Both the position numbers and the translations under genes were made by a program. Shown in pieces: positions 286 to 34,484 of a stretch of 37,915 bases of DNA (the stretch's first letter is position 1; every line of letters starts with the position of its first letter). Source of the stretch: Atractiella rhizophila (Eukaryota); assembly GCA_021432655.1 (NCBI GenBank), contig MU271628.1, positions 1 through 37,915 of the forward strand. The letters run 5' to 3'. Under the pieces are notes generated by a model. The model was not told the origin of the DNA, made no database searches, and worked only from the letters and a program-made list of their open reading frames with translations.

Positions 286-777
286 CTTGAGACTAATCTG
301 CGGTTTATTGATAGGTTGTTTGGAATGAGATATACAGTTTGTAACCAAACTTAACAAGAACTCCAAAGTTGAGGGTTACTGCACTATTATAGGATGATTG
401 ACGTCCTTGCTATGCGATAAAGCAGTCTAAAAGACTGTCTGACAATATCACAAGGGCGTACTGTAAACAGAGGTCCCAAGAAGAAGGCCTATGGACTTCT
501 TCCGTGACTTGGTACGTTGCCTGGTGTAGAGACTTGTTTACAGTTTCCAAATGCAGCACTCCAACACAACTCCTTTATCCTTATCAAGATTTGATCACTC
601 ACTGTTGATAGTACCTTCAGCTCCTAGTCAGAATACGCCGATCCTGCTAGTCTAGGGTATGCACCGATCCCCTGCTGAAAATAATCTAATCTCCAACCCC
701 TGCTCCTTGTTGATACGGTCCAAAGTCTGTTGTTAGGTGCGGGTGCGAGATAAGGGTTTTCTCCCGGCTAGAGTGTT

Positions 778-789
778 GGGCTCATAACC
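778..789 (-). promoter_or_regulatory. Primer-binding site, Copia-type (tRNA-iMet fragment)
   Basis: Minus strand GGTTATGAGCCC directly abuts the LTR end ...CAACA. Confidence 0.85.
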
Positions 790-987
790 TGTTGAGACTA
801 GGATTCTTCCTATCACACTGGGAAGCGTACATTGCAGAAGAAACTCACCTAGGATTCTTCCTATCACACTGGGAAGCGTGAAGGGAAAAATTCCTTGTGA
901 GGGGGGTATATGTGTATTTTACATTGCGGGGCATTGCGGGGCATTCATGTGACCATAATTGTCACTGTTTGTCGCTTATCTCCAACA
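790..987 (-). repeat. Copia 5' LTR (198 bp) with an internal perfect 31-bp direct repeat (798-828, 849-879)
   Basis: TG...CA termini with imperfect inverted ends (TGTTGAGA / TCTCCAACA). CTAGGATTCTTCCTATCACACTGGGAAGCGT occurs twice, 20 bp apart. Confidence 0.85.
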
Positions 988-1921
988 AATATCAATATCA
1001 CAGTACACGGGAGGTTGAGTTTAGGATCCAGGGGAGCCACTCCAGGACGGCGAAGCAGAGAGTCCGGATGAAACACAGTTTGCTGTCTCCAAGGACTCAA
1101 AAACGAGTTCAAGTTATTGGATCCATGCCTCCCGGAGACTCATTAACCGACTCTGATGGGAGTCGTTTTTCTGGCTTTAGCTGTTGCTTCTGCTCCCTCT
1201 CCCGTTGGTATTGTTCCTTGAGCTTATGAGGAAAGAAGGTATAAAATTGCATCAGATAAAATAGTTGGACAAAATACAAAAGGCCAGCATCATCATATCT
1301 TAACTGGACCTCCCTCCCGGCTCCTTCATTCCTTCCTCACTTGCTAGTGTGCTCCACCTTTCTTGTCTCTACCTGGTAACCATGCCATGTTCTGTAGGGG
1401 GTTAAAGAAAGTGGGATCAATGTACAAGCCACATGTCAATAGTTGGGACGGCTGTGACGCGAATTGCGATTAATTAGCCACTTTCCCACTCCAAACGACT
1501 ACAGTTAGCCAATGTTTACAGTGGTAGTAAGAGAGATGGAAATGTTTGATAACATATCAGTGGCAGGGCTAATGAACTGACCACACCGTTTCTCCTCCAT
1601 GTTCCCTTTTTGAATAGGTGAGAGCTTGGCGAGGAAGTGATTGCTCCGGAACAACAACACTTCGCAACATATATCCAAAGGAGATGTATCAGATTCGACA
1701 TCGGGTGAACAGAGGTGCATTGATGGAGCAATTTGGAGTGAAGCACCTTCAGATTCACCAATCATCGTGTGCTTCTCCCTGGAAGGGGTTTGAAACCTTG
1801 AAGGTTATTGTAAACATACATATCTTCTGTGCAGGTGCCGTATATAACACATCCAATCCAGAGGACAATTCAGAGGTGAGGGAGTTGAGAAGGATGAAGA
1901 AGGAGACAAACACGAAAGACT

Positions 1922-2374
1922 TGTCAGGCTTGCCCCTACACATTACCGAAATGCACCATCTGAAGTCACGTGACCTACTTTGCCTCGTCATGGGATCACG
2001 TGCCTCCCCATCGCCGCTTTGCTCATGCTCACGCTGTCCACCGCTCAGCAAACCTTACACATTTCGCTGGTCTGCACCGTCCCATTTTCGTCTTACTATC
2101 CTTTCTCACTAGTACTGTTCGTATCTCTTATTTCCGAGTATCCCTTCATTGCTTTCCTGATCTAGTTATCTTACGTGTTTCAAGAAGTAGAGTTTATGGC
2201 AGTGTCTTTACATATGTATATATACCTTGAGATGTAGTGGTGGCGACCTTAGAGTATTCTCTTAGGTTTACCTCCACTACAGGTTAGTCTTCTCATGCCA
2301 TACTATTCGCTTAGGTTTACCTCCACTACAGACGCATCGCCCGTCAGCGACCGCACATAGTGTCAGCCCTAACA
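1922..2374 (+). repeat. Gypsy LTR copy 1 (5' LTR, 453 bp)
   Basis: TGTCAGG...CCCTAACA termini. Homologous to 3508-3997, 14392-14882, the split copy at 9318-14225, and the 3' half of 8238-8685. TATATATA at 2217-2224; 28-bp direct repeat at 2255-2282 and 2304-2331. Confidence 0.92.
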
Positions 2375-2434
2375 GAAGAACACACTCTCTCCATTTCAAA
2401 ACCAAACTTAGAAACGTCGGAGGTTTGGGGAGAT

Positions 2435-2960
2435 ATGGAAACGCGCGAACTGCTGACGAGTGAAGAACACATCCATCACTTAGAAAAGATGTTCCAAACT
2501 CTACACCTAACAACCGAAAAGCAGTTCAAAAAACACGAACAAGACCTCATACCAAGTTTCAACCAACAAAATGCGCATGAAATTGCGCAACTGAGGTCCG
2601 ATGTCCAAAACACAAACGACCGAATTTTGCAATTATTGGACTCCAGACTGCCCCCTCCTAGAGACAGTGGAACCACCTCTCCTTTCTTATCGCGAACAGA
2701 CCCAATACCTCAAACTTATTCTCCTCCGTCTATATCCCAGACTGCCCAAGTAGCACCGTATGCAGGTATCAAGCTCGCTCCACCTTCAATCTTCAAAGGA
2801 GCACCCAAATTTTCCACAGCCACTCGTCGACTATTTTCAAGCACGACCAATTTACGTTCCACACCTTGACCGTTGCCAAGCGCAATTCCCGACAGAAAAA
2901 TCGAAAAGCTCTAGTTACCCTTTCCTTTACATGAAACAAGGTAGCCATGCGGAAAAACTC
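2435..2960 (+). pseudogene. gag: Ty3/Gypsy gag N-terminal remnant (frameshifted, truncated)
   Basis: METRELL...IKLAPPSIFKG, then a shifted frame QPLVDYFQARP...QFPTEKSK...YMKQGSHAEK. Resembles fungal Gypsy Gag (KLxxPxxFxG; YFxxxP; FxxExxK). Lies just after the 5' LTR. Confidence 0.75.
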
Positions 2961-3384
2961 GGACCGCTGAAAACCGAGTTTCAGGCCGACTTCCTCCAAA
3001 ACGAGCAACGAATGTTCATGGGAACAATTTTAGACGAAGTTCAGAACGCAATGCCTGCAAGACAGACCACAAGCGCATCTGCACAGAAAATGAAAAAACT
3101 TCCCTCCAGCACCGAAACCTTGGGCAACCTCAGAAACCATTCGCACATTCCCATCGCCGAAGGGTTACCACACAAAATATACGAGAAAAGAAAACTCACC
3201 TCTGATAATGAACCTCATCACAAAATTTGACATACAAACGGTAGCACCCAATCCCCCACTCCAGCACATCAAAGAAATGCCCAAAGTTCACCTCCTTCGC
3301 TTTCTCCACGTCCCAGAAAATGGTGCTCTCCTTCCTATCCTTGTTCGCCAGAACGAAGTCGAAGAGTTGCGCATCGGTCGACAT
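2950..3384 (-). pseudogene. Antisense, apparently spliced gene of unknown function inside the Gypsy element
   Basis: AAAATGTC start at 3384. The 61-codon exon MSTDAQLFDFVLANKDRKESTIFWDVEKAKEVNFGHFFDVLEWGIGCYRLYVKFCDEVHYQ ends at AG|GTGAGT (3199). The downstream phase-compatible frame reads DGNVRMVSEVAQGFGAGGKFFHFLCRCACGLSCRHCVLNFV*NCSHEHSLLVLEEVG. Possible 5'UTR intron at 3479-3421 (GTGAGT...CAG). Confidence 0.5.
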
Positions 3385-3490
3385 TTTTGCAAGAGTAGAC
3401 GGAGGGTGATGGTGATAGAACTGGAAAATTTTTCGCCCAAGCTAGCCGCAAACCTTAACTTTAAAATTCCGTGACTCACGTACACGAGTC

Positions 3491-3507
3491 AGAAATTTGG
3501 GGGGTGT
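3491..3507 (+). promoter_or_regulatory. Polypurine-tract-like element before LTR copy 2
   Basis: AGAAATTTGGGGGGTGT directly precedes TGTCAGG; a similar AGAAACTGGCGGGTGT precedes LTR copy 3 (8222-8237). Confidence 0.7.
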
Positions 3508-3997
3508 TGTCAGGCTTGCCCCTACGCATTACCGAAATGCACCATCTGAAGTCACGTGACCTACTTTACCATGCCATAGGACCACGCGCCTGCCCATCGC
3601 CGCTTTGCTCACGTTCTCGCTGATCGCCGCCTTCCCCTGTCTCACACTAATCGCCGCTCAGCAAACCTTAACCATTTCGCCAGTCTGCACCGTCTCCATT
3701 ATTGCTTTATTGTCCTTTCTCACTTGTACTGCTCAGTATGTCTTATTTCCGAGTTTTCCTTTTATTGCTTTCCTGATCTAGCTATCTTACATGTTTCAAG
3801 AAACTTATGATACAGTTTATGGCAGTGCTTTTACATATGGATATATACATCGAGATGTAGTGGTGGTGACCTCAGAGTATTCTCTTAGGTTTACCTCCAC
3901 TACAGGTTAGTCTCCTCATGCCATACTATTCTCTTAGGTTTACCTCCACTACAGACGCATCGCCTATCGGCGACCGCACATAGTGTCAGCCCTAACA
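3508..3997 (+). repeat. Gypsy LTR copy 2 (490 bp)
   Basis: TGTCAGG...CCCTAACA; perfect 28-bp direct repeat at 3878-3905 and 3927-3954; preceded by a PPT-like tract. Confidence 0.92.
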
Positions 3998-4017
3998 ATG
4001 ACTCCCCATTTCCAAAA

Positions 4018-7000
4018 TTGTGTTTTCCATCTTGGAGACAAAGATGCGCAGATGTCGCAAAAATGTATGACAAAGTCCACTTACCTTCGGCAACGGCATC
4101 CCTAGTCAGTTCGAAAACAAAACTCAGAACCGCTTTTCATCACCCATACTCCCATTGCCGACACGCCACATTGGCATTCGTGGACAGCGGGGCAACCACT
4201 TCTTTCATTTCTCCAAAATTCATTTCTGAATACAACCTACCCGTCACTCAACTCCCTTCCCCGGTGCCCATTTGCAATATCGACGGATCCCTCAATCAGG
4301 GGGGTTCCATCCATTCTGTCGCTTATTTACCCATTTCGATCGCCGCCCATCACGAAGTTTGACAATCCGCTGTGGCGGAGTTGGGGACAGTCAACATGAC
4401 TCTAGGTCATGACTGGCTAAGACACCACAACCCAGAGATTAACTGGGTGTCAGGGAAAGTTGAGTTCTCTCGTTGCCCCACTAGTTGCAACTCGGTTGAT
4501 GTGTCTACCACACGAGACCAACTTCCATCGTCCTCTGCCTCAATACGTGCCGCCATGACAAAATCGCAGAAATTGGAGAAAGACGCCGCAGTGATGAGAC
4601 CAAAGAACGTTGTCGAAATACTGACGCAAATCGCCGATTTTGCAGACATTTTCGACGACGAAAATTCAAAAGCTCGCTTCCTCCGCGACGACCTTGGGAC
4701 CATGCCATCGACCTCAAACCAGAAGCTCAACCATATGCTGGTCCCATCTACCCCTTGAAAAGAGACGAACCAGCAGCACTCGACCAATTCATTGACCCTG
4801 AACTGAGCGCTGGTCGTATACGTCCTAGCACAGGTGAACACGGCGCTTCCATCTTTTTTACACACAAAAAAGACTCACCCGAACTTCGTCCCCTTTTCGA
4901 CTATCGTAAGTTGAATGAAGCCACAATCAAGGACAAAACTCCACTCCCTATCCAAGCCGACCTCTTCTCCATGGTCTCTGATAAGAAATTTTTCAGCAAG
5001 ATTGACCTGAGAAAGGGTTTCAACAACGTTCGCATCAAAGAAGGAGACAAGCACAAAGCGGCATTTCGCACAAATCGCGGACTTTTCGAATTATTGGTGA
5101 TGTATTTCGGTCTCTGCAACTCACTGGCGATTTTTCAGGCCTTCCTGAACTCTATTTTTCGCGCGATGATCGCCGCTGCGTTCATCTTCATATACATTGA
5201 CGACACCCTCATTGCGACAGAGACCGAAGAAGAACATTGGGAATGTGTTCGATAAGTTTGTCAAATTTTGCGCGAAAATGGGCTTTATGTTAACTTACAG
5301 AAATGTGTCTGGTGTCAAAACGAAGTAGCGTATCTAGGATTGATCATTACCAGCAGAGGGATCGAACCGGATCCAGTAAAGGTTGCAGGAGTGATGGATT
5401 GGCCGGAACCGAAAAACATGAAGGAAGTCCAAATGTTCCTTGGTTTCGCTAATTTCTATCGCCGCTTTTGCGACAGATTTAGTCACATCGCAAGACCTTT
5501 ATATGAACTGACCAAAAAAGAGATTTCCTGGGTCTGGGGGGTAGATGAACGACGTTCGTTCGCCGCTTTGAAGCAGCGCATGACTTCGGCACCCGTTTCG
5601 GCACATCCCGAACAAATAGGACGATTTTTGCTCGAAGTCGATGCGTCAAAATTTCGCGACAGGCGCCGTTTTGTCACAAATGAAACTAGATGGGAAGTTT
5701 CATCCTCTCGGTTTCGTATCAAAATCGCTCGACGCTGCCCAGAGGAACTATGACACCTATGACAAAGAAATGCTCGCGATTATGCGGGGACTGCATGAAT
5801 GGAGACACCTTCTTCAAGGTACTGATGAGCGATTTCTGATTTTTGACCGATCACAAAAATCTTGAGTATTTCAGAATGCCGCAGAAGTTGAATCGCCGAC
5901 AGGCACGCTGGATCACTGAACTTGCATCTTTCAACTTCACACTTTTACACCGTCCTGGGCGGAACTCCGCAAAACCAGATGCGCTCAGTCGGCGACTGGA
6001 TCACAAACCGGCGACTTGCGACAACTTTGACGTAGTGTTACTCCCAGAACGTTTTTTCAACACGGATCGTATCACGATCAACGCGACTGGGAGCACGGTT
6101 GCGCTCACAAGACAAATGTCGCAGTTGAGTATACTGGAAGGCGTGAAAAAGGTACCCGAACGAGAAGAACAAGTAGTCAAGGCCTTGAGAGAGATCCTAG
6201 ACGAACCGGTCGACGCGATTCGCTGACGGGAGTGGCAAGAAGTCGATGGTGCTATCTATTTTCGTGGAAAACTCTACATTCCCCGCGACGACGAAATTCG
6301 CTGCTCGATTTTGCAAGACCTGCACGATTCGCAAATCGCCAGTCATCCAGGCGTAAAATCGACGACGGCTCTCATAAGAAGGTACTACTGGTGGCCAGGT
6401 TTGGCGCATTTGGTTCGCCTCTATGTCGGCGCCTGTCACACTTGCCACAGAACGAAAAACTTTCCTTCCCCACCTGTCGGGTTTTTGCAACCAAATGACA
6501 TTCCCACACGTCGCTGGCAAATTGTCAGCATGGACTTGGTTGGACCACTCCCAGAATCTGGGGGGTTTGACACGATTTTCGTAATAGTAGACAGACTCTC
6601 AAAATGCACCCATCTCATCCGCACCCATTCGACGATGGATGCAGAGGGCCTCGCAAGACTTTTTCACGACCACGTATGGAAGCTACATGGACTTTTTGAT
6701 GTCGCAATTTTCGATTGTGGAAAAGAGTTTGTGTCTAAATTCACATCTGCACTTTTTCGCCTATTGGGTATCAAAGGCTCAACATCGACAGCCTATCATC
6801 CACAAAGTGATGGCCAGACTGAACGTATGAACCAAGAAGTTGAGCAATATTTGCGCATTTTCTGCAATCACCTTCAGGATAATTGGGTGGAAGGACTTCC
6901 CAACTCAGAATTTGCGCTCAACAATCGCGTTAGTTCGACGGGCGTAACTCCATTTTCGCTCGATTGCGGTCAACATCCCCGCGTGACCTTTGAAACCATC

Positions 7001-7703
7001 TCTGACGAGGACGTTCCCGCAGCGGCGCAATTCATCGAAAAGATGCAAATCGCTGACCGGGAAGCACAAGCAGCACTTGAACAAGCAGCAGATCTCATGG
7101 CAAAACATTATGACAGAAAACGCGCACTGGCGCCCGAATATCACGTCGGCGATTTCGTCTGGTTGAGCGCGAAAAACATCAAATCAACGAGACCCGTCAA
7201 AAAGTTAGACGACAAATGGCATGGCCCTTTTCGTGTTTTGCAAGTTTTGGGTCCCCTCAACATTAAACTCGAGTTGCCATCCTCATGGACATCCAGTGTT
7301 CTATGTGGGCCTAATACGAAAAGTCAACGAAGACGACATCCCGGGCAGAGTCCAGTTGCCCAAACCACCTCCAGAATTGGTGAATGGAATTGAAGAATGG
7401 GAAGTGGAAAAAATTGTTGATGGAAAATGGTTCGGTACCCGAAATATAGTTTTCAAATATCGCGTTCGATACAAAGGGTATTCACCATCTGAAGACGAGT
7501 GGATCAACATCGCAGATCTAGAAAATTCGCAGGATGCTATAAAAGACTATCACACTGCACACCCTCTTGCAGTTCGTCCCAATTTCATATCAAACTCAGC
7601 CAAAAATCGCCCAAATGCGCGTTTCGTAACCTTCGACGAAAACGCGCTAAAGGTTCTTCCTCACTTTAAGGGGTCTAACACCCCTGTATGCCTTGCCGGG
7701 TGA
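4018..7703 (+). pseudogene. pol: Ty3/Gypsy chromovirus pol (protease-RT-RNase H-integrase-chromodomain), broken by frameshifts and stops
   Basis: Protease AFVDSGATTSFI and LGHDWL. RT LRPLFDYRKLN, KIDLRKGF, YIDD. RNase H EVDAS.../DKEMLAI/TDHKNL. Integrase HxxxxxxHPG...CHTC, SMDLVGPL, YHPQSDGQTERMNQ, WHGPF. Chromodomain EEWEVEKIVD...YRVRYKGYSPSEDEW. Split over about 8 ORFs. Confidence 0.95.
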
Positions 7704-8020
7704 AGTCCTAGTCTTTGGTACTTAGGTTAAGGCAAGGCGCCGACTTGCTCCTCAACGGGCAGGTCGGCAACTTGGTCATTGGTGAGTCCATTCATCTCCT
7801 GTCAAAGACGAATGCTCATTGTGTTCTCACACCATCACCAATGTCGCATTTACGAAAATGGCCCTCAATCGTGAGGTATCCTCCCCCTTACTTTAAGAGG
7901 ATCTACTCCTCTGCACACCTCACTGGGTGAATCCCTAGTCACATTGTTGAACATAGGTCTAGGCGAGGCGCCGGTCTGTTCAACGGACAGATCGTGATCG
8001 GTTTGTTGGTGAGTTGTCCA
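7661..8020. repeat. Diverged direct repeat (~130 bp units at 7661-7790 and 7888-8020) between pol and the 3' LTR
   Basis: By-eye alignment shows shared blocks ACTTTAAG, GGGTGAA..CCTAGTC, TAGGT..AGGC.AGGCGCCG, TCAACGG.CAG.TCG and TTGGTGAGT. Confidence 0.75.
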
Positions 8021-8237
8021 GCTCGTTTTCGCAGGATGGACACTTATTACACCAAAACAACACCTGGTCAACTTCAAAAAAATTCCTTAAATTGCAAGGT
8101 ACATAATGTCTCTTTACTCTGACGATTTCATCTCCTTTCAAGCGGCCGCTTGCACTTTAGGCATTTTTGGCAAATAGGCAAACCTCACGAAGCAGAAGTT
8201 TCTGCCTGCAGCAAGCATCACAGAAACTGGCGGGTGT

Positions 8238-8685
8238 TGTCAGGTTTGCATCTTAGGCAAATCGGCGCCTGTTCGCCTGTTCGCATTCTACACAAATCTG
8301 GGAACTGTCGCCACTCTGAGTCTCCTGTCGCCTATTTGCATGCAGTGCAAATCGGCGCCGGGTCGCCTGTTCGCCCATTCGCCCATTTGCGCCTACATCA
8401 CCACTTAGCCCAATTGTCCCTATCCTCCTCTTATTAACTCCACGTAATCCCACTATCACTTCCCCTTTTAGTTCTCTTACATGTTTCATCTGCTCTCCTC
8501 TATGCTCTGTGGCAGTGTTATTCCGCTTGTATACATAGATCGGAGAGTAGTGGAGGTGACCTTAGAGTATTCTCTTAGGTTTATCTCCAATACAGGTTAG
8601 TCTTCATGCCATATCATGCTCTTAGGTTTATCTCCACTGCAGACACATGGCCCGTCGGCGACCGCACATAATGTCAGCCCTAACA
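8238..8685 (+). repeat. Gypsy LTR copy 3 (3' LTR, 448 bp; different subfamily with a distinct U3)
   Basis: TGTCAGG...CCCTAACA, preceded by the PPT-like tract. The 3' half aligns to the other LTRs. The 5' half differs and has two GCAAATCGGCGCC...TCGCCTGTTCGC repeats. Confidence 0.88.
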
Positions 8686-9512
8686 TGAACTCCCTCAGAT
8701 TTTGAATTTCCTGGACACCAAAGTCACTTTGCCGTGTAGATCCATGTATGGATCCACACTCCTCACAATATTCTGTTAACCCATCCGTCTATACAATGTA
8801 CACTGCTGTTGCAGGCTTATGCCATAAGTCTCAAGCTGTCAACTACCCTGTCTGTGTAGTGTTGCCAGCTTTCACCTCCAGCCTTGAGCTAACTGCGACA
8901 CATTAATTGGACCATAAGTGACCTTAAGTGCCAATATCTGTGAGATCAGCTCTCCCTCCCATTCTACACTTTGGGTTAGGGTCATGTTCTGGTTCCACAG
9001 CAATTTGACCACCATCACACTGTGGACCAGGTCCAGCGTACAATATTTACCTACATATACCTGCTACGTTGCAGTTAGACAAAGTTATCCAAAGCACAAC
9101 TCTGCAACCTCACTGTATGAACCTTGCCTGTTGATGTTACTACATCATATTGTCCGATAGTACTGCTTAATCTATATCGTTTCATTATGATTTCAGCTTA
9201 GGGTTATATAAAACCCTTCACTTATCAATAAGCTGTTTGATGGGAAGAGTGACAAAACTAAAAGCCCAGAAAACGAAATTCTAGTCCTAGTCCAATGCAA
9301 AGTGAGTAAGTTACTGCTGTTAGGGCTGACACTATGTACGGTCGCCGACGGGTGATGCATCTGTAGTGGAGATAAACCTAAGGATAATATGACAGAGAAG
9401 ACTAACCTGTAGTGGAGATAAACCTAAAATACTCTAAGGTCATCACCACTACGTCTCAATTTTATACTTACACAAGTGTGTCAATGGCCTTCGTCCCTCA
9501 GCCTCCCCAACC

Positions 9513-12500
9513 TAGAGGTGTCAACGAGTACAGGATTCGCTGGTACTCACGTTGCAGGTACTCGCCTACAACGAGTTGCGAGACAGCCGTTTGACTGTTT
9601 TCAGGAGACGGGTACCTCTTGTGCCGTACCCACACTGTGCGCAAATCATCCAAGCATTAGCCCAGGTATCCGTGCTGTGCTAGGCTCCTCCGCTGCCCCA
9701 ATGGTCCAATCCAACCAACCCTTCCCAACCACAAACGTCCAGCTGCTGCATGGACATCGACAGGGCTCTCTTAGAGTCGCAACAGCTCGCCTCTAGTTTT
9801 CTTTCATCTCAATTCGAATCCGAACAAGCGTCCTTTCGTCCCCTCCTCTTCATGACCAACAACGCTCGACACCAACCATCTATCTGTGATATTCTACATG
9901 TACGATGCTCGCGAGTGTCATCCGATGGCTTCTACGCCAGAGTTTGAGATTCTTTCCTTGTTCTTTTTGTCAAGTTATTTCTGTAGTAAGTCTTCCTTTA
10001 AAAGTCGCTTGTTGGACTAGTAGCTAACACCATCTTCAATCCAGAGTTGAATTCGCACTACGACATCATGTCTGAAGCTGAGGCAGAAGGTCCGGTTTTG
10101 CAGAACAATCCTTGCTCCGAATCCTCCTCCTCAACCCCAATCAGTTCTCAGAAGGATGACCTTGCCCCTACCATCAATGCCCCAATGAGAAAGTCGGCGA
10201 AGAAGCCTCATGATCCCGCTTTGGATTCAGCTTCAGACCTTTCTGATGATGAAAATGATTTCCGTAAGTCTACTTTGCTCATATTTCAAGAGCCGTTTGT
10301 TTACTACTGGTACAAGGTCGCCGTAAGTGCACCTGGGTCTCCAAGAAGATGAGGGAGCTCTACGCTCATTTTTGTATTGAAAAAGCGAAGGATACGAAAG
10401 GTTACAATCGGAGGACGCTTCAAGGAGAGTTATACATTGCATACTATTGCAAAGAGTGTGTTACTGCCTACTCATTTCCTTTCACTGACTTTCCGCTGTC
10501 CAGATCACCAGAAAGTCCTCCCCTTCTTCGCGCCATAAGCGATGTTACGACTACCAACCTGCGCAAGCACTTCAATAGGTGCATCCTAATGCCAATAACG
10601 ACATTCGCTCTGCTCTCAGCTGCACATACACTCGCGCCGCCTTTCGTGTTCTGTCAACGGAGTGGATTGTTGAGAGCGGACAGCCATTCTCGATTCTTTA
10701 GGACCGAAAACTTCAAGAGATTCTGTGCATGCTCTACAATGGAATTAATATCCATGGCCAGATGACTGTATCGCTGGACGTTAAGCGGTATTACGAGCTT
10801 TCGAAGGCAATTGTTGTGAAGGAACTCCAAGTTCGTTCTTTTTCACTCCGGGAATCAGTTAGTATAGTACTTATGATTGTATTGGCAATGGGATAGACTC
10901 ACAGGGGCACACTTCATTCAACAACTGACATCTGAATTGCTTCTAATCGCACAAATCTCCTTGTGTTGACGATACATTGGTACTAAGATGACATGCTCCA
11001 GCAATTCCTCATGGATTTAATCCCATAAGTTTCTGCTCGATTCGTGGCTTGGACCAAATACTTATTTTGCTCATGGTCAGTTTACATGGACGGCATACGG
11101 GCGAACTGCTTGCGAGAACGATAGCAGTGACATGGGATGAGTTTAAGATTTGTGGAAAGGTATGCAATGTTTTATCTTTTGCTCACTTCCGGAGCTGAAT
11201 CCGATTTTCTAGGTTATCACACTCGGCGGAGACAGTGCTTCCAACAACCTCTTAGCTGCTGAAAGACTCAGAACTGAGGTAAAGCGGATAACGGGGAAGG
11301 ACACGTTTTTAAGCAAGAATGCCTACTCTCAGTGCTTGGGGCATGTTTTGAATCTTGTTATGCTGGTAAGCTACTCTTTGTTTCTTTATTTGACTTCAAC
11401 TGCATGCTCATTCTGATACGGATGTGAGCAGGCTATGTACTCACTATTCCTCTATAAACGTGGCAAAGGAGAAGGTGATATCGATGAAGAAGAAGCGCTC
11501 TTTGGTGCAGTTCCAGAGAACGAGGTTGACGAAGGAGAAAACGATGCGATGCCGATGCGGAGGCTCTTCTCAACCAAGTCGGCGACCTTTTGAGCGAAAT
11601 GGAAGCTGAGGAAGAAGTCGAAGAAGAGTCGGAGTCGGAGGTGTCCAAACCCTTGGCTAAGTTAACAGAAGACGAAAAGAAAGCAGCGAAATTTCTATTA
11701 ACCAAGGTGCGTTATCTCAATGCTTTGCCTGAGCGCTCCCTCCTATTCACGCTTAACGATTTTAACTTAGGTTGTATGCATGGCAAAGGGGATTCATTTT
11801 TCCACACCGAAGGCAGAACTGCTAAAGTCGTGGGCGAAAGAGAATCAAGTCGAATATAAGGAGCTAGCACGGGCAGTAAGGTGTGTTAAAACTTGTTGTC
11901 GTTATAAATTCTAACGTCTTCTTGGTGCAGGCACCGCTGGAACGCTTACCATCTTTGGATCACCTCCGTCACCCATCTTCAAACAGCCATCAATGAAATT
12001 ACAAGTCGAAAGTACAAGGAGTATGGGCTGACAAAGTGGGATGTGGCGGATGAAGAGTGGACCGTCTTGGATGATTTGAAGACTTTGGAAAAGGTGAGTT
12101 TTCTGTTGCCGACATGGATACGATCTCGTAAGTAGCTAGCTGTTCTACGATGCCACTCTCTTCATCTCCCCGAAGGGAGTCCCTCTCGCTCACCTCGTCA
12201 TTCCTGTTATGGACAAGCTGCAAGCACACCTCGACAGCATTCGTTCGAACAAGAACATTTCGAAGATTGTGCGCCATGCTGTACTCACTGGGACGAATAT
12301 TCTCAATAAGTTTTACTCGCTCACCGACAACTCGCCTTTTTATCGCATGGCGATGTGTACGTATATTTACATTTATTCTCCTCGTGTACAGAGTATTAAC
12401 TGGTCTGTTACATAGATGCGGCCCCAAACTTCAAGCTCAAGTATTTCAGGTCTCAAAACTGGCCGGACGAGTGGATCGAGGAAGTGGAGCGCCTTACGAA

Positions 12501-13642
12501 AGAATACTTGGAGAAGAACTATCCTGAAGCACTCAGGATTTCCAAGAGCTTGAGCTCAAGAAGACCCACACAGAAATCTGTTCGTTTTGAGTTTGCTATT
12601 GATAGGAACTTTGTGCTAACAATCAATCTAGGCAGTTCAAGACAACTCGAGTTTTTTTGACGACCTTCTCAGCAGTAACAGCTGCACAAGCGCTAAACAC
12701 GACCCTTTGAAGAGTCTCTGGGATCAGTATAGTAGCGAAGGAGTTGTCAAGGATGTTGGAAATCCATTGCAATGGTGGGCAGCCCGCATGAAAGAGGCAG
12801 AGAAGAAGGGGCGCGTGGATTATCTTGTACAATGGGGTTTGGATGTTCTGTCCACACCAGGTAAGCTCGTATCCTTTATCTCTTTGCTCTTTGGCTCTGA
12901 CTAACTGTATCTACAAGTGACCTCAATCGACGTTGAACGAATCTTCTCCGTCACCGGCAATACCATCACTCCCCGCCGAAATTGACTCTCTCCGGAAAGT
13001 TCCCGTGCAGCAGTTGTCCTTGGTGCCTGGAGTAAATTTGATGGAGCTTTCTAGCGAGGAAAGAGTCTGAGGCGGAGTTGACTGGGGGTTGGGAGCGTGC
13101 AGGCAAGGGGTAGGGAAAGAAGAGAGGGCGGTCTGCTGCTGCAGATGAGATGGAAGATGGAGAGGGTATGAGTAGCAAGGTAGTCGTTATTGAAGACAAC
13201 TGACCTACTGCTACGTTGAAAAAAGTGTCTGAGGGCGTAAGGCTGGAAGGTCTTATTGCTTCGAGTTCTTCGGTCTGTCTTTTTTGCATCAGCGTAACTT
13301 AGAGGGACTATAGCTTTACTTGTTGGGTTTATTTCCTGCAAAATATCTACCGTACTGAAATTGGATGATCTTATAATAATAACATTTAAACTGGAAAAGA
13401 TATCAATTAAATTTCAACTCATAAGTACCCGTTCTATGACAAGTACTCATTAACTTGTGCTCGTGAGTACCCTGGCAAGACAACGAGTACTTTTTAGCTA
13501 CACGGGTATCTGTACTCGTCCATACTCATTTACAGCACGAGTACTCTCAGGTAATACTCGTGAGTCAAGGGTACTTGTGCTGTGCGAGTACAACGAGCGT
13601 TGAGCTGAGGTTTTACTTCCCAATTACTCGTCGGCAACTCTA
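9513..13642 (+). mobile_element. Full-length hAT-superfamily DNA transposon (4130 bp)
   Basis: 18-bp TIRs: TAGAGGTGTCAACGAGTA (9513-9530) vs reverse complement TAGAGTTGCCGACGAGTA (13625-13642), 15/18. 8-bp TSD CCCCAACC (9505-9512) / TCCCAACC (13643-13650). Subterminal GAGTAC/GTACTC motifs; internal transposase. Confidence 0.93.
9750..13203 (+). pseudogene. Multi-intron hAT transposase, decayed (BED-like finger, DDE core, dimerization domain); ends approximate
   Basis: Exon fragments: YYCKEC...TTTNLRKHFNRC; HGRHTGELLA; TLGGDSASNN; QCLGHVLNLV; RWN; FYSLTDNSPFYRMAM; NPLQWWAARM...WGLDVLSTP|VTSIDVERIFSVTGNTITPRRN*LSPES. In-frame stops and frameshifts present. Confidence 0.88.
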
Positions 13643-14391
13643 TCCCAACCCACTCACAAGGGGCATGGCCCCTCGAACCCCACAGTGATCAGATCATGTA
13701 AGAGTTCGAGTCCAGTAGGAAGTGTATTTTTTTAAACACTTGCAGAATAAAATTTCCTTGTAGGTTCAGAAAGGGGCAAGCATATGGGTCACAATGGCAT
13801 AATTTACTTCATGCTATTGTGCATGGCGAGGGAGGTGTAAGGGCTCAAAAATGCCTCTTATGACTCATGCCAAGAACTGATGAACCTTAGAGGATAGCAT
13901 ATGCATGGATACTGCCATGAACAGTAAAGTATATCTCATGAAACATGTAGAATAGCTAGATCAGGAAAGCAACAAAGAAAATAATTGGAAATAAAATATA
14001 ATAAGTAGGACAGTTAAAATGTTGTCAAAACGAAACAGTGACAGTGCAGACCGGCGAAATGTACAAGGTTTACTGAGCAGCCATTTGTATGAGAGGAGGG
14101 AAAGCGGTGGAGAGCGCGGGTATACGCAAAGCGGCAAGGGTAGACATGAGATCCTATGAAGTAGGAAGGTAGGTCATGTGACTTAGGCTGGCGCATTTCA
14201 GTAATGTGCAGGAGCAAGCCTGACAACTGCATCGCGCGCTGATCACCAAACTCATCAACCAACCGCTCTCCCAAGCTCACTCAGCTCTCCTTTCAACTAT
14301 CGCCCACTTTCTTTATCATCAATCCTCCAACCCAAGAATACATTCACTACCTGCAGCCACACCCACCAAAAAAAATTTGTGACCTTGAATG

Positions 14392-14882
14392 TGTCAGGCT
14401 TGCCCCTACGCATTACCGAAATACACCATTTGAAGTCACGTGACCTACTTTCACCACATCATAGGATCACGTGCCTGCCCATCGCCGCTTTGCTCACGTT
14501 CGTGCTGATCGCCACCTTCCCCTATCTCACACGAATCGCCGCTCAGCAAACCTTACACATTTCGCTGGTCTGCACCGTCTCCATTATTGCTTTATTGTCC
14601 TTTCTCACTTGTACTGCTCAGTATGTCTTATTTCCGAGTATTCCCTTTATTGCTTTCCTGATCTAGCTATCTTACATGTCTCAAGAAACGTATGTTACAG
14701 TTTATGGCAGTGCTTTTACATATGTATATATGCATCGAGATGTAGTGGTGGTGACCTCAGAGTATTCTCTTAGGTTTACCTCCACTACAGGTTAGTCTCC
14801 TCATGCCATAATATTCTCTTAGGTTTACCTCCACTACAGACGCATCGCCTGTCGGCGACCGCACATAGTGTCCGCCCTAACA
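14392..14882 (+). mobile_element. Gypsy solo LTR (491 bp)
   Basis: TGTCAGG...CCCTAACA; very similar to 3508-3997; 5-bp TSD GAATG (14387-14391) / GAAGG (14883-14887) with one mismatch. Confidence 0.92.
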
Positions 14883-15925
14883 GAAGGAAGGAGATGGCAC
14901 CAGAGGGCAGTCCGATGAGTAACAACGCCTTGCTAGACATGAACTTGGGTCTCTCTTTCTTCATTCCGGAAACTTCCAATCCACGTATTCGTTTTCTCTA
15001 TGAGCTTTCAGACTTGGGCACCTACTGTATTCTGCTGAACCCAGATCTCTTATGGATACTTGCCACAAGGGTCTCATAGAGGTGGTGGAAAGGGACGGTG
15101 TGGACGTGAACGTGGCCAAAACAACACTTTTCTTCAAAACCTTTGACAAACTTTGGAAACCTTTCTCCAGTCTGAATCAGAAAGACTTTGCGATGCCATA
15201 CTTCGCTCTCTACATTATAAGTTTGCGGACATTCTCTCTGACCTTTCAGTTGCCTCCAAGTTCGGAGACAATGTTTATCCTCCACTCCACATTGAGGAGC
15301 AAGCGGAACACATCCTAACCTTTGTGGCTCACAGGACTGGCACGCACCTCAAAGTTCCATCCGCAACTCATATTGCAAGCTATTGACATCTGGTGCCTCC
15401 CCTCCACTGACTGCCCGTTCTACAGCAGTTCATGTTGGTACAGCAACCCCACAAAAGAGTCAACTTTAAACCACCAGTGGTGAAAACGGCTCAAGCAGGA
15501 TGGACAGAATTGGGCATGCCAGTGTTCTACACCTAGCATACACCGGAAGAACTGGGCCAAGAAGTAAAGAGGGAAGTGATAGACGACGTGAGATGGGAAG
15601 AGGAGAGGGAGGAGGAACCAGAGGAGGAAGAGCAGAACGTAGTGGAAGCAATCCAATACGTCGTCGAGGCAACCAAACCGGAAGATTCAAGCGTCGTATG
15701 GAGGAGCACAACTTATCTGCACAACAGATCCAAGTCCTCCATATCTCCTTCGACAAGAACCACTAGAGGATTCAGAAACGCGTTAGGGGTTATCCAAACG
15801 AGTAATGTTACATTGCGATGATGCTTGAGAAAGGCTAACAAAATACAAACCATTGGAGGCGACGACACATACTTAAGGATATGGAGATGAAGATATAAAC
15901 AATCGCGAGAAACAGGTATCAGACA

Positions 15926-20737: not shown

Positions 20738-21017
20738 AATTTGCGTAGTTCAAGAGTGAATATAGTAACATTCGTGTGAAATCGATTAGAGTCATTTCTA
20801 GCAGGTTTGGTGAGGACAGAAAGCTGGCGGTTCGGTTTGATTTGATAAGAAGGGCAACACAGGCACAGGCGCAGGGAGAGAGTACGTTAAATGGTATAAA
20901 AATGTCGGTAAAATACGCGTAAGGCGGGACGGTTTTATTATTGAATTCCTTGAAACAGTCGATTAAGCACTTTATCCAATGATCTAGCAACTTTAAGTGT
21001 GAATGGGGGAGACGTAA

Positions 21018-27129
<6,112 letters not shown>

Positions 27130-27889: not shown

Positions 27890-28288
27890 GCCTGCGAATT
27901 CCCATACCTGTCTGCTGAGGTCGCCTTCTTTGCCGTGGTTTCAAGTTGGTGATTGCGCTGCCTCTTATAATGAAGCACGAATAATGTTCCGAGCTAGACC
28001 TCCCACTTTCACCAGCGCTGAATCATCCCAGCGAGCTTCGTCTTGAGAATTGAAAGCTGGATGATGTGCATAGGTTCTGGCCTCTTCTGGTCACGGTCAC
28101 CATTGCCGTTGTCGTAATCAGCTTCATCATCCCCTACCGAAGCAGACAAAATACCCGAAGCAAACAAAAAGGCGCAATGGGGTAGAGCTGGATGGTATAA
28201 ATATCCTTGCAAGGGAAGCCAGTTTTATTTCGAATTCCTTGAAACCATCAATCGTACTTTTAGCCATCATCCAGCAGGGGGACGAAAA

Positions 28289-34484
<6,196 letters not shown>

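Follow-up and report, generated by a model that had tools for sequence, protein, structure and literature searches.

The left 15 kb of the DNA analysed here (the window: 37,915 nucleotides (nt), positions 1 to 37,915 of contig MU271628.1, forward strand, from the Atractiella rhizophila assembly GCA_021432655.1) is a nest of retrotransposon remains, in which six long terminal repeats (LTRs) can be recognised, five of a single Gypsy (chromovirus) group, called here A to E, and one of the Copia type. The host is a basidiomycete of the Pucciniomycotina. All six LTRs (6/6) are laid out in the same order: a TATA-like box, 33-38 nt, a repeat (repeat 1) ending in AG, the motif GT(T/G)AGT, which resembles a 5' splice site, a spacer that runs for about 15 bases beyond this donor hexamer, a second copy of the repeat (repeat 2) ending in the same AG, and U5. 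Repeat 1 ends in CAG and is followed by GTTAGT in the Gypsy LTRs, and it ends in TAG and is followed by GTGAGT in the Copia LTR; U5 has 43-44 nt in the former and 8 nt in the latter. The stretch from the donor to the end of repeat 2 has the form of a small spliceosomal intron lying inside the LTR, and it is this candidate intron, and the way in which it might pass through reverse transcription, that we discuss. The counted sample consists of six LTRs, and the independent cases are two families from one genome.

According to our analysis Gypsy LTR A (1922..2374, plus strand), which has the TGTCAGG...CCCTAACA termini common to the whole group, acts as a 5' LTR, because a gag-like open reading frame (ORF) with an ATG at 2435 follows it. 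Its TATA-like box (TATATATA, 2217..2224, plus strand) is found 34 nt before position 2251 and 38 nt before repeat 1, and the alignment gives equivalent boxes in LTRs B, C, D and E. The last 21 nt of U3 (2234..2254, plus strand), further referred to as the U3 arm, are complementary to both repeats. Repeat 1, the candidate exon 1 or R region, occupies 2255..2282 (plus strand) and ends in CAG; the candidate intron GTTAGT...CAG follows at 2283..2331 (plus strand, 49 nt), where the spacer takes 2283-2303, with an ATG at 2295, and repeat 2 takes 2304-2331; and an ATG-free U5 of 43 nt (2332..2374, plus strand) closes the LTR. LTR B (3508..3997, plus strand) has its repeat 1 at 3878-3905, its candidate intron at 3906-3954 (49 nt) and its U5 at 3955-3997, and LTR E (14392..14883, plus strand), 93% identical to B, has the corresponding repeat and candidate intron at 14763-14790 and 14791-14839 (49 nt). 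The U3 of LTR C (8238..8685, plus strand) is barely alignable with the others and its R-U5 module is conserved, with the candidate intron at 8596-8642 (47 nt). LTR D (9318..9452, minus strand) is represented by the part from the TATA-like box to U5, its U3 being not alignable, with the core of repeat 1 at 9427-9407 and the candidate intron at 9406-9361 (46 nt).

The Copia-type LTR, a 5' LTR read on the minus strand, spans 790..987 (TGTTGG...TCTCAACA), its outer edge being taken from a drop of contig depth at ~984. Repeat 1 (849..879, minus strand, 31 nt, ending in TAG) begins 33 nt after the motif CATATAC; the candidate intron GTGAGT...CCTAG (798..848, minus strand, 51 nt) consists of a spacer at 848-829, with an ATG at 832, and of repeat 2 at 828-798; and the primer-binding site (PBS; 778..789, minus strand) comes directly after the 8-nt U5 (797-790). 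This PBS (789-778) is a putative match to the anticodon stem-loop of the initiator tRNA, as in priming of the Copia/Ty5 type; a tRNA scan of the window gave no tRNA gene. A Gag ORF lies about 500 nt beyond the LTR, with a match to Retrotran_gag_3 at 20.1 bits, below the cut-off of 24.1, and only 125 amino acids of it fall within the window.

This six-LTR layout, together with its positions, had been claimed by a sequence-only reading of the same DNA, and all of it was reproduced by direct reading and by a mechanical scan of the whole window for direct repeats matching exactly over 18 nt or more at a period of 35-90. The scan returned 6 loci, each of them an LTR candidate-intron site, and no other short-period repeats. 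At five of the six the exact run of the repeat ends in AG and is followed by GT; the sixth is LTR C, where mismatches interrupt the exact run and the alignment still gives CAG/GTTAGT. The Copia part of the claim, a perfect 31-nt repeat, a 51-nt intron running 848 to 798 and 8 nt left before the PBS, reads exactly so (repeat identity 31/31). The 28-nt repeat claimed for the Gypsy LTRs stands as such in B and E (28/28), whereas LTR A has one T/G mismatch, LTR C has private mismatches, and in LTR D an exact core of 21 nt is left. This 21-nt core is identical between the two repeats within each of A, B, E and D, and in C and D changes have accumulated in the 7 nt that precede it. On both sides the repeats break off sharply against unrelated bases. 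It was also correct that the two families share their layout and not their sequence, since no substring common to the Copia LTR and Gypsy LTR B is longer than 7 nt.

The motif AG/GTNNGT occurs at 40 of the 75,830 positions of both strands (5.3e-4), a count that includes real host donors and the LTR sites themselves, so that for two independent families the chance of its coincidence with the repeat/spacer boundary is about 3e-7. The structure is real, non-random and convergent in the two families. One can still imagine that it has no role in RNA processing, the repeats being an old R/U5 duplication, for instance from a slipped strand transfer, or a repeated site for protein binding or packaging, and the splice-like edges a coincidence. 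Short duplications are common in LTRs, and the covariation of the hairpin described below is not significant, both of which count for such an explanation; we nevertheless regard it as very improbable, taking in account that one edge motif, expected at ~5e-4 per position, is present in two unrelated families, that the length is host-like in both, that both leaders have an ATG in the spacer and are poor in ATGs elsewhere, and that 0 of 23 control chromovirus contigs have any repeat of this kind. A tandem duplication would moreover predict a spacer similar to the bases that follow repeat 2, and by eye only 5 of 21 are alike. Introns are known to be born by tandem duplication of AGGT-containing segments, in which case the intron end repeats the end of the upstream exon and the intron start repeats the start of the downstream exon; the first likeness is found here and the second is not, and a plain origin of that type was rejected, the spacer being unrelated to the bases after repeat 2 and the repeat edges being sharp.

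For a comparison with introns of the host we mapped a 1537-amino-acid ABC-transporter protein (P0001) exactly onto the DNA of the window, which gave 25 introns of 28-78 nt, with a median of 58. Their donors follow the pattern GTNNGT, with G at +5 in 24/25 and T at +6 in 18/25, and their acceptors are CAG (16), TAG (8) and GAG (1). The candidate LTR introns, 46-51 nt long, with a GTTAGT or GTGAGT donor and a CAG or TAG acceptor, fall within this range of lengths and within the host GTNNGT/YAG pattern, which bears out the size match claimed earlier. The indels among the Gypsy copies, responsible for the lengths of 49, 47 and 46 nt, fall within the candidate intron without touching the GT, the AG or the TTTAY-pyrimidine stretch.

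The leaders of both families add another sign. The density of ATG in the window is 0.018 per position. The Copia leader, counted from repeat 1 to the ATG of gag, has 595 nt and contains two upstream ATGs, one within the PBS and one within the intron spacer, which leaves for the 544 nt outside the candidate intron a single ATG, the one in the PBS, against ~9.8 expected. In the leader of Gypsy LTR A there is none in the 135 nt outside the candidate intron and one inside it, again in the spacer. AUG is thus avoided in the leaders apart from the stretch that would be spliced out, and the only unconstrained upstream ATG of each leader sits inside the candidate intron. Several independent signs of a spliced leader intron are present at the level of sequence, and we consider that the candidate intron probably is spliced.

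Reverse transcription of a spliced RNA normally erases introns, and retroelements and retrogenes are hence expected to be intronless. In agreement with the sequence-only reading, modified as regards the RNA 3' end and the role of the U3 arm, we propose that in these LTRs the intron could be lost and rebuilt in each round, which would cover every feature described. Transcription would start at repeat 1 or 4 nt upstream of it; repeat 1 would serve as exon 1, and the segment from GT(T/G)AGT to the AG of repeat 2 would be removed from the 5' copy, giving, by analogy with host genes, an intron-licensed mRNA with a leader that has no upstream AUG. The 5' end of such RNA (repeat 1-U5) would be identical in sequence to the unspliced repeat 2-U5. 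In the 3' LTR copy the end of U3, present only there, may fold onto repeat 1, and in Copia onto the donor as well, which would disfavour splicing and annealing at that place and leave repeat 2 free; the U3 arm would in this way be the reason for which the 3' copy behaves unlike the 5' copy. The minus-strand strong-stop cDNA made on the spliced RNA could then anneal to repeat 2 and to any U5 bases that precede the poly(A) site, and go on to copy the spacer, repeat 1 and U3, so that both new LTRs would recover the whole intron and repeat 2 would be overwritten by repeat 1 in every cycle.

Since spliced repeat 1-U5 equals unspliced repeat 2-U5, any poly(A) site in U5 would give the strong-stop cDNA its longer match at repeat 2. 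The sequence-only reading had the RNA end exactly at repeat 2, which is neither needed nor supported: polyadenylation anywhere in U5 would work, provided that the 3' copy stays unspliced. The rewriting of repeat 2 from repeat 1 in each cycle would also explain the sharp edges of the repeats and a substitution common to both of them, T instead of C at one and the same position of the two repeats, seen in LTRs C and D, whose U3 no longer aligns with that of A, B and E. The anatomy and its conservation, the agreement with host intron signals and the ATG-free leaders are seen in the sequence, and the hairpins and the unequal accessibility of the repeats are predicted from it; the RNA start, the splicing, the RNA 3' end and the landing on repeat 2 are what we infer here. 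That both families carry a host-type spliceosomal leader intron inside the LTR and rebuild it in each cycle is, for the full cycle, a serious possibility with the balance lying slightly against it.

The different behaviour of the two RNA ends has its counterpart in predicted folding. Repeat 1 can pair with the last ~21-27 nt of U3, and a hairpin between the two is possible only in the 3'-LTR copy of the RNA, because its 5' arm lies upstream of the presumed RNA start. In the Copia LTR the hairpin (844..901, minus strand) is formed by the end of U3 and the first 5 nt of repeat 1, which pair with the rest of repeat 1 and with the donor GUGAG, now taken into the stem; its predicted free energy is -39.8 kcal/mol (z -5.5), and 0 of 200 shuffles were as good. 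The Gypsy hairpins reach z values of -2.6 to -4.2 in A, B, E and C and of -1.7 in D, and their U3-arm pairing leaves 92.5% of cells paired, against 39-53% when the arm is slid. Among the four distinct Gypsy sequences there is one compensatory pair (G-C to A-U, in D), and in C one change from a mismatch to a pair. Predicted pairing probabilities in the 3' context leave 0.20-0.27 of repeat 1 and 0.42-0.79 of repeat 2 unpaired in five of the six LTRs, and such a buried repeat 1 beside an open repeat 2 is, in the model, what a jump onto repeat 2 would need.

The same pairing may suggest another, in our opinion unlikely, explanation, in which the leader intron is real and no regeneration takes place: the spliced RNA would be a messenger only, the template would always be the unspliced RNA, and the two repeats would be alike because each of them pairs with the U3 arm. 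The splice signals, the size and the ATG distribution are all compatible with it, and the best-kept part of the repeat is just the part that pairs with the arm. No LTR with a single repeat was met among the joints of the DNA contigs, as this explanation would have it, though contigs built from 31-mers could hardly show one. On the other hand, the repeat stops precisely at the acceptor AG, in A, B, E and Copia it is longer than the part that pairs with the arm, and the Copia repeat has 10 bases, the first 5 and the loop, that are not paired with U3. LTR retrotransposons are also not known to separate messenger from template RNA by means of a leader intron, which weighs against it too.

The donor itself gives a less uniform picture. 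In Copia it is predicted to be 0.73 unpaired in the 5' context and 0.34 in the 3' context, that is open where splicing is proposed and paired where it is not. GT(T/G)AGT might be read as a binding site for U1 snRNP, which would keep the 5' LTR from forming a premature 3' end, the site being hidden at the 3' LTR by the U3-dependent fold so that polyadenylation takes place there, no local splicing being involved. A precedent exists in foamy virus, where U1 suppresses the 5' site and another RNA structure blocks U1 at the 3' LTR (PMC3694450). Such a function, quite unlikely in our estimate, would agree with the Copia donor and would leave unexplained why repeat 2 ends precisely in an acceptor AG, why there is a repeat at all and why the ATG is confined to the spacer; no poly(A) signal can be recognised downstream of the donor, fungal signals being too loose to be called by eye; and the Gypsy donor is not masked in the 3' context. 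For this last reason masking of the donor as a mechanism common to both families was rejected, as it holds for Copia only.

Returning to a spliced leader intron which is rebuilt in each cycle, a number of observations weigh against it. Only two independent families are available, both from one genome, and any generalisation to basidiomycetes would have no wider basis. A at donor position +4 is found in just 1 of the 25 host donors; the branch-point candidates, TTTAC 12 nt and CTTAG 18 nt before the AG in Gypsy and GTGAT 15 nt before the AG in Copia, differ from the commonest host forms, which by eye are mostly CTGAY, TTGAY or CTAAC; and the Copia candidate intron holds three internal AGs before the proposed acceptor. 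The Gypsy donor is unmasked in the 3' context, where it is 0.51-0.70 unpaired, compared with 0.30-0.54 in the 5' context (5 LTRs). LTR C, which carries private mutations in repeat 1, shows the reverse accessibility of the repeats, and the covariation of the Gypsy hairpin is not significant, its score being reached by 262 of 500 shuffles. The concerted C to T change of LTRs C and D represents a single event. An ordinary reading, in which R is repeat 1 and the poly(A) site comes just after it, gives an unremarkable U5 of 59 nt in Copia and 92 nt in Gypsy A, whereas regeneration leaves Copia with a U5 of only 8 nt. Finally, the complement by which the Gypsy element could prime itself, considered below, is broken in the window copy, where it amounts to 6 nt and is not significant.

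Regarding the RNA start, the Gypsy LTR has no TGG-type PBS downstream. A candidate self-priming PBS is found instead at 2377..2386 (plus strand), bases 3-12 after the LTR. At 2381 and 2384 most of the other genomic copies, as represented in the DNA contigs, differ from the copy in the window, and only when their majority letters are put in does this stretch pair perfectly with 2251-2260 over 10 nt, a length that 9 of 2000 shuffles reach. This complement between the presumed 5' end of the RNA and the PBS would, by analogy, place the RNA start 4 nt before repeat 1. The internal Gypsy region (3998..8237, plus strand) encodes a frameshifted reverse transcriptase, RNase H, integrase and a chromodomain; matches to the Pfam families Integrase_H2C2, rve, SH3_Tf2-1 and Chromo are found there, and the relatives are named Tf2-like by their sources. 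Self-priming of Tf1/Tf2-type elements is mentioned in PMC7175516. The element resembles these fission yeast chromoviruses in the Tf2-1-type SH3 integrase with a chromodomain, in the lack of a TGG-type tRNA PBS and in the candidate 10-nt complement of the presumed RNA 5' end and the PBS, and it differs from them in needing the majority letters of other copies for this complement to be unbroken. In Tf1 the primer is an 11-nt piece removed from the 5' end of the RNA, and a removal of the same length here would, again by analogy, leave an RNA beginning at the 21-nt core, the best-kept part of the repeat. Tf1 is not known to have a repeat or an intron in R.

The tandem arrangement of LTR A, a gag fragment, LTR B, pol and LTR C over 1922-8685 makes an LTR-internal-LTR-internal-LTR array. 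LTR B has a purine-rich tract upstream, as expected of a 3' LTR, and 5'-leader-like sequence downstream, and the U3 of C is very unlike that of B; this array suggests recombination between elements of different subfamilies.

The abundance of these LTRs in the genome was estimated from two DNA contig sets of one sample, possibly the source of the assembly, placed on positions 600-3450; the contigs are built from 31-mers and average ~110 nt. The summed word depth is ~144 for single-copy DNA, ~21,000 for the Copia LTR, 26,000-39,000 for the Gypsy U3 and 506,870 for the bin 2232-2327, which holds both repeats. The depth of this bin is far above that of U3, and it follows that the R-U5 module is much more widespread among the LTRs than any single U3 and is kept across many LTR subfamilies; LTRs C and D, with their differing U3s, point the same way. 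No clean skip of 49 nt, as an LTR with a single repeat would give, was seen among the contig joints, where a 28-nt repeat in 31-mer contigs could hardly show one; the joints 2264>2315, 2267>2313 and 2302>2354 carry replaced letters. In each run one DNA contig joins 2344 back to 2245, which corresponds to an LTR variant with an extra copy of ~100 nt (the U3 arm, both repeats and the start of U5), and this variant could be the product of a misplaced strand transfer.

Relatives were searched for in two further collections. A scan of viral_contigs with a pattern of the R-U5 module gave 0 matches, a scan of metagenome_contigs with a U5 pattern gave 10, all of them unrelated, bacterial-looking and due to chance, and protein P0013 found no relative in viral_contigs. 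As a control, 0 of 23 distant chromovirus contigs from IMG/VR carry such a repeat; these contigs (L001, L012-L032), with integrases 30-44% identical, were assembled as circles and carry no host assignment, so that the control does not extend to other basidiomycetes. It does show that LTRs do not have this layout as a general rule. The 23 'viral' contigs of IMG/VR are themselves LTR retrotransposons of 4.6-7.1 kb with exact terminal direct repeats of 27-123 nt, and they appear to be elements collapsed to circles by assembly rather than viral genomes; one of them, L001, has by eye its own complement of the 5'-end/PBS type beside the LTR end.

Among the systems already described a close one is that of foamy virus, where the major splice donor sits in R and precedes the poly(A) signal (Schrom et al. 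2013, PMC3694450). The foamy virus LTR is alike in having a 5' splice site inside R, hence at both RNA ends, with U3 at the 3' end altering the local fold; it is unlike in that the donor has its acceptor far beyond the LTR, no sequence is duplicated, and what the donor does in the LTR is to control polyadenylation. In the Atractiella LTRs, unlike in foamy virus, 46-51 nt of the LTR hold donor, branch-like site and acceptor together, and the candidate intron closes with a copy of exon 1. Canonical splicing in LTR-contained transcripts has also been described for maize from long-read RNA, in a preprint that claims the first evidence of the kind (bioRxiv 10.64898/2026.05.08.723830). Those introns average 1303 bp and belong to LTR-contained non-coding transcripts, with neither a duplication of exon 1 nor a proposal of regeneration, whereas the candidate discussed here is fungal and would be a leader intron of ~50 nt in the full-length RNA.

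There are other ways in which retroelements come to contain introns. Penelope-like elements and Ogre retain a spliceosomal intron through retrotransposition, which is ascribed to unspliced or differently initiated templates; unlike the mechanism proposed above, this retention is not known to involve a rebuilding of the intron from a repeat during strand transfer. In the engineered split-intron retroviral vectors attributed to Ismail et al. 2000, reverse transcription reportedly assembles in the provirus a functional intron which is absent as such from the RNA of the producer cell; these vectors are man-made, keep donor and acceptor in different parts of the vector and have no copy of exon 1 in the intron. 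The open-access literature in PMC and bioRxiv, to which the search was directed, yielded no LTR intron whose end repeats exon 1 and no rebuilding of an intron in strand transfer.

From the information discussed above one may go as far as to suggest that LTR retrotransposons of an intron-rich basidiomycete have twice independently built into R a leader intron ending in a copy of exon 1, that the fully spliced RNA is usable as a template, and that the U3 hairpin, by burying exon 1 in the 3' copy only, steers the jump; we put this forward tentatively and lean rather against it than for it. If true, it would account for the success of retrotransposons in fungi whose genes nearly all have introns, assign a new function both to the R region and to the first strand transfer, and constitute a general route by which retroelements may resemble host genes in hosts that express intronless RNAs poorly or treat them as foreign. 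The signature (TATA, repeat-AG/GTNNGT, spacer, repeat-AG, U5) can be searched for in any genome. At the RNA level the event would be hard to notice: splicing would yield a sequence indistinguishable from unspliced repeat 2-U5, to which ordinary short-read RNA sequencing is blind. If the RNA starts exactly at repeat 1, as is proposed for Copia, the spliced RNA could not be told from one begun at repeat 2, and the splice would escape genome annotation (2283-2331, 798-848).

Two other parts of the window deserve mentioning. Between ~10000 and 13000 the stretch 12632-12904 of an ORF resembles, by eye, the C-terminal dimerisation motif of hAT transposases; four ORFs tried in this region had no Pfam match. 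No LTRs are involved in the large repeat at 21.0-34.4 kb, which consists of two ABC-transporter genes in tandem, both on the minus strand (21.0-27.2 and 28.3-34.4 kb); they are 76-87% identical over most of their length and 95-99% identical over the ~1 kb of their 3' ends (21016-22007 and 28287-29276; D2, D3, D18), and these 3' ends look like the result of a recent gene conversion between the paralogues.

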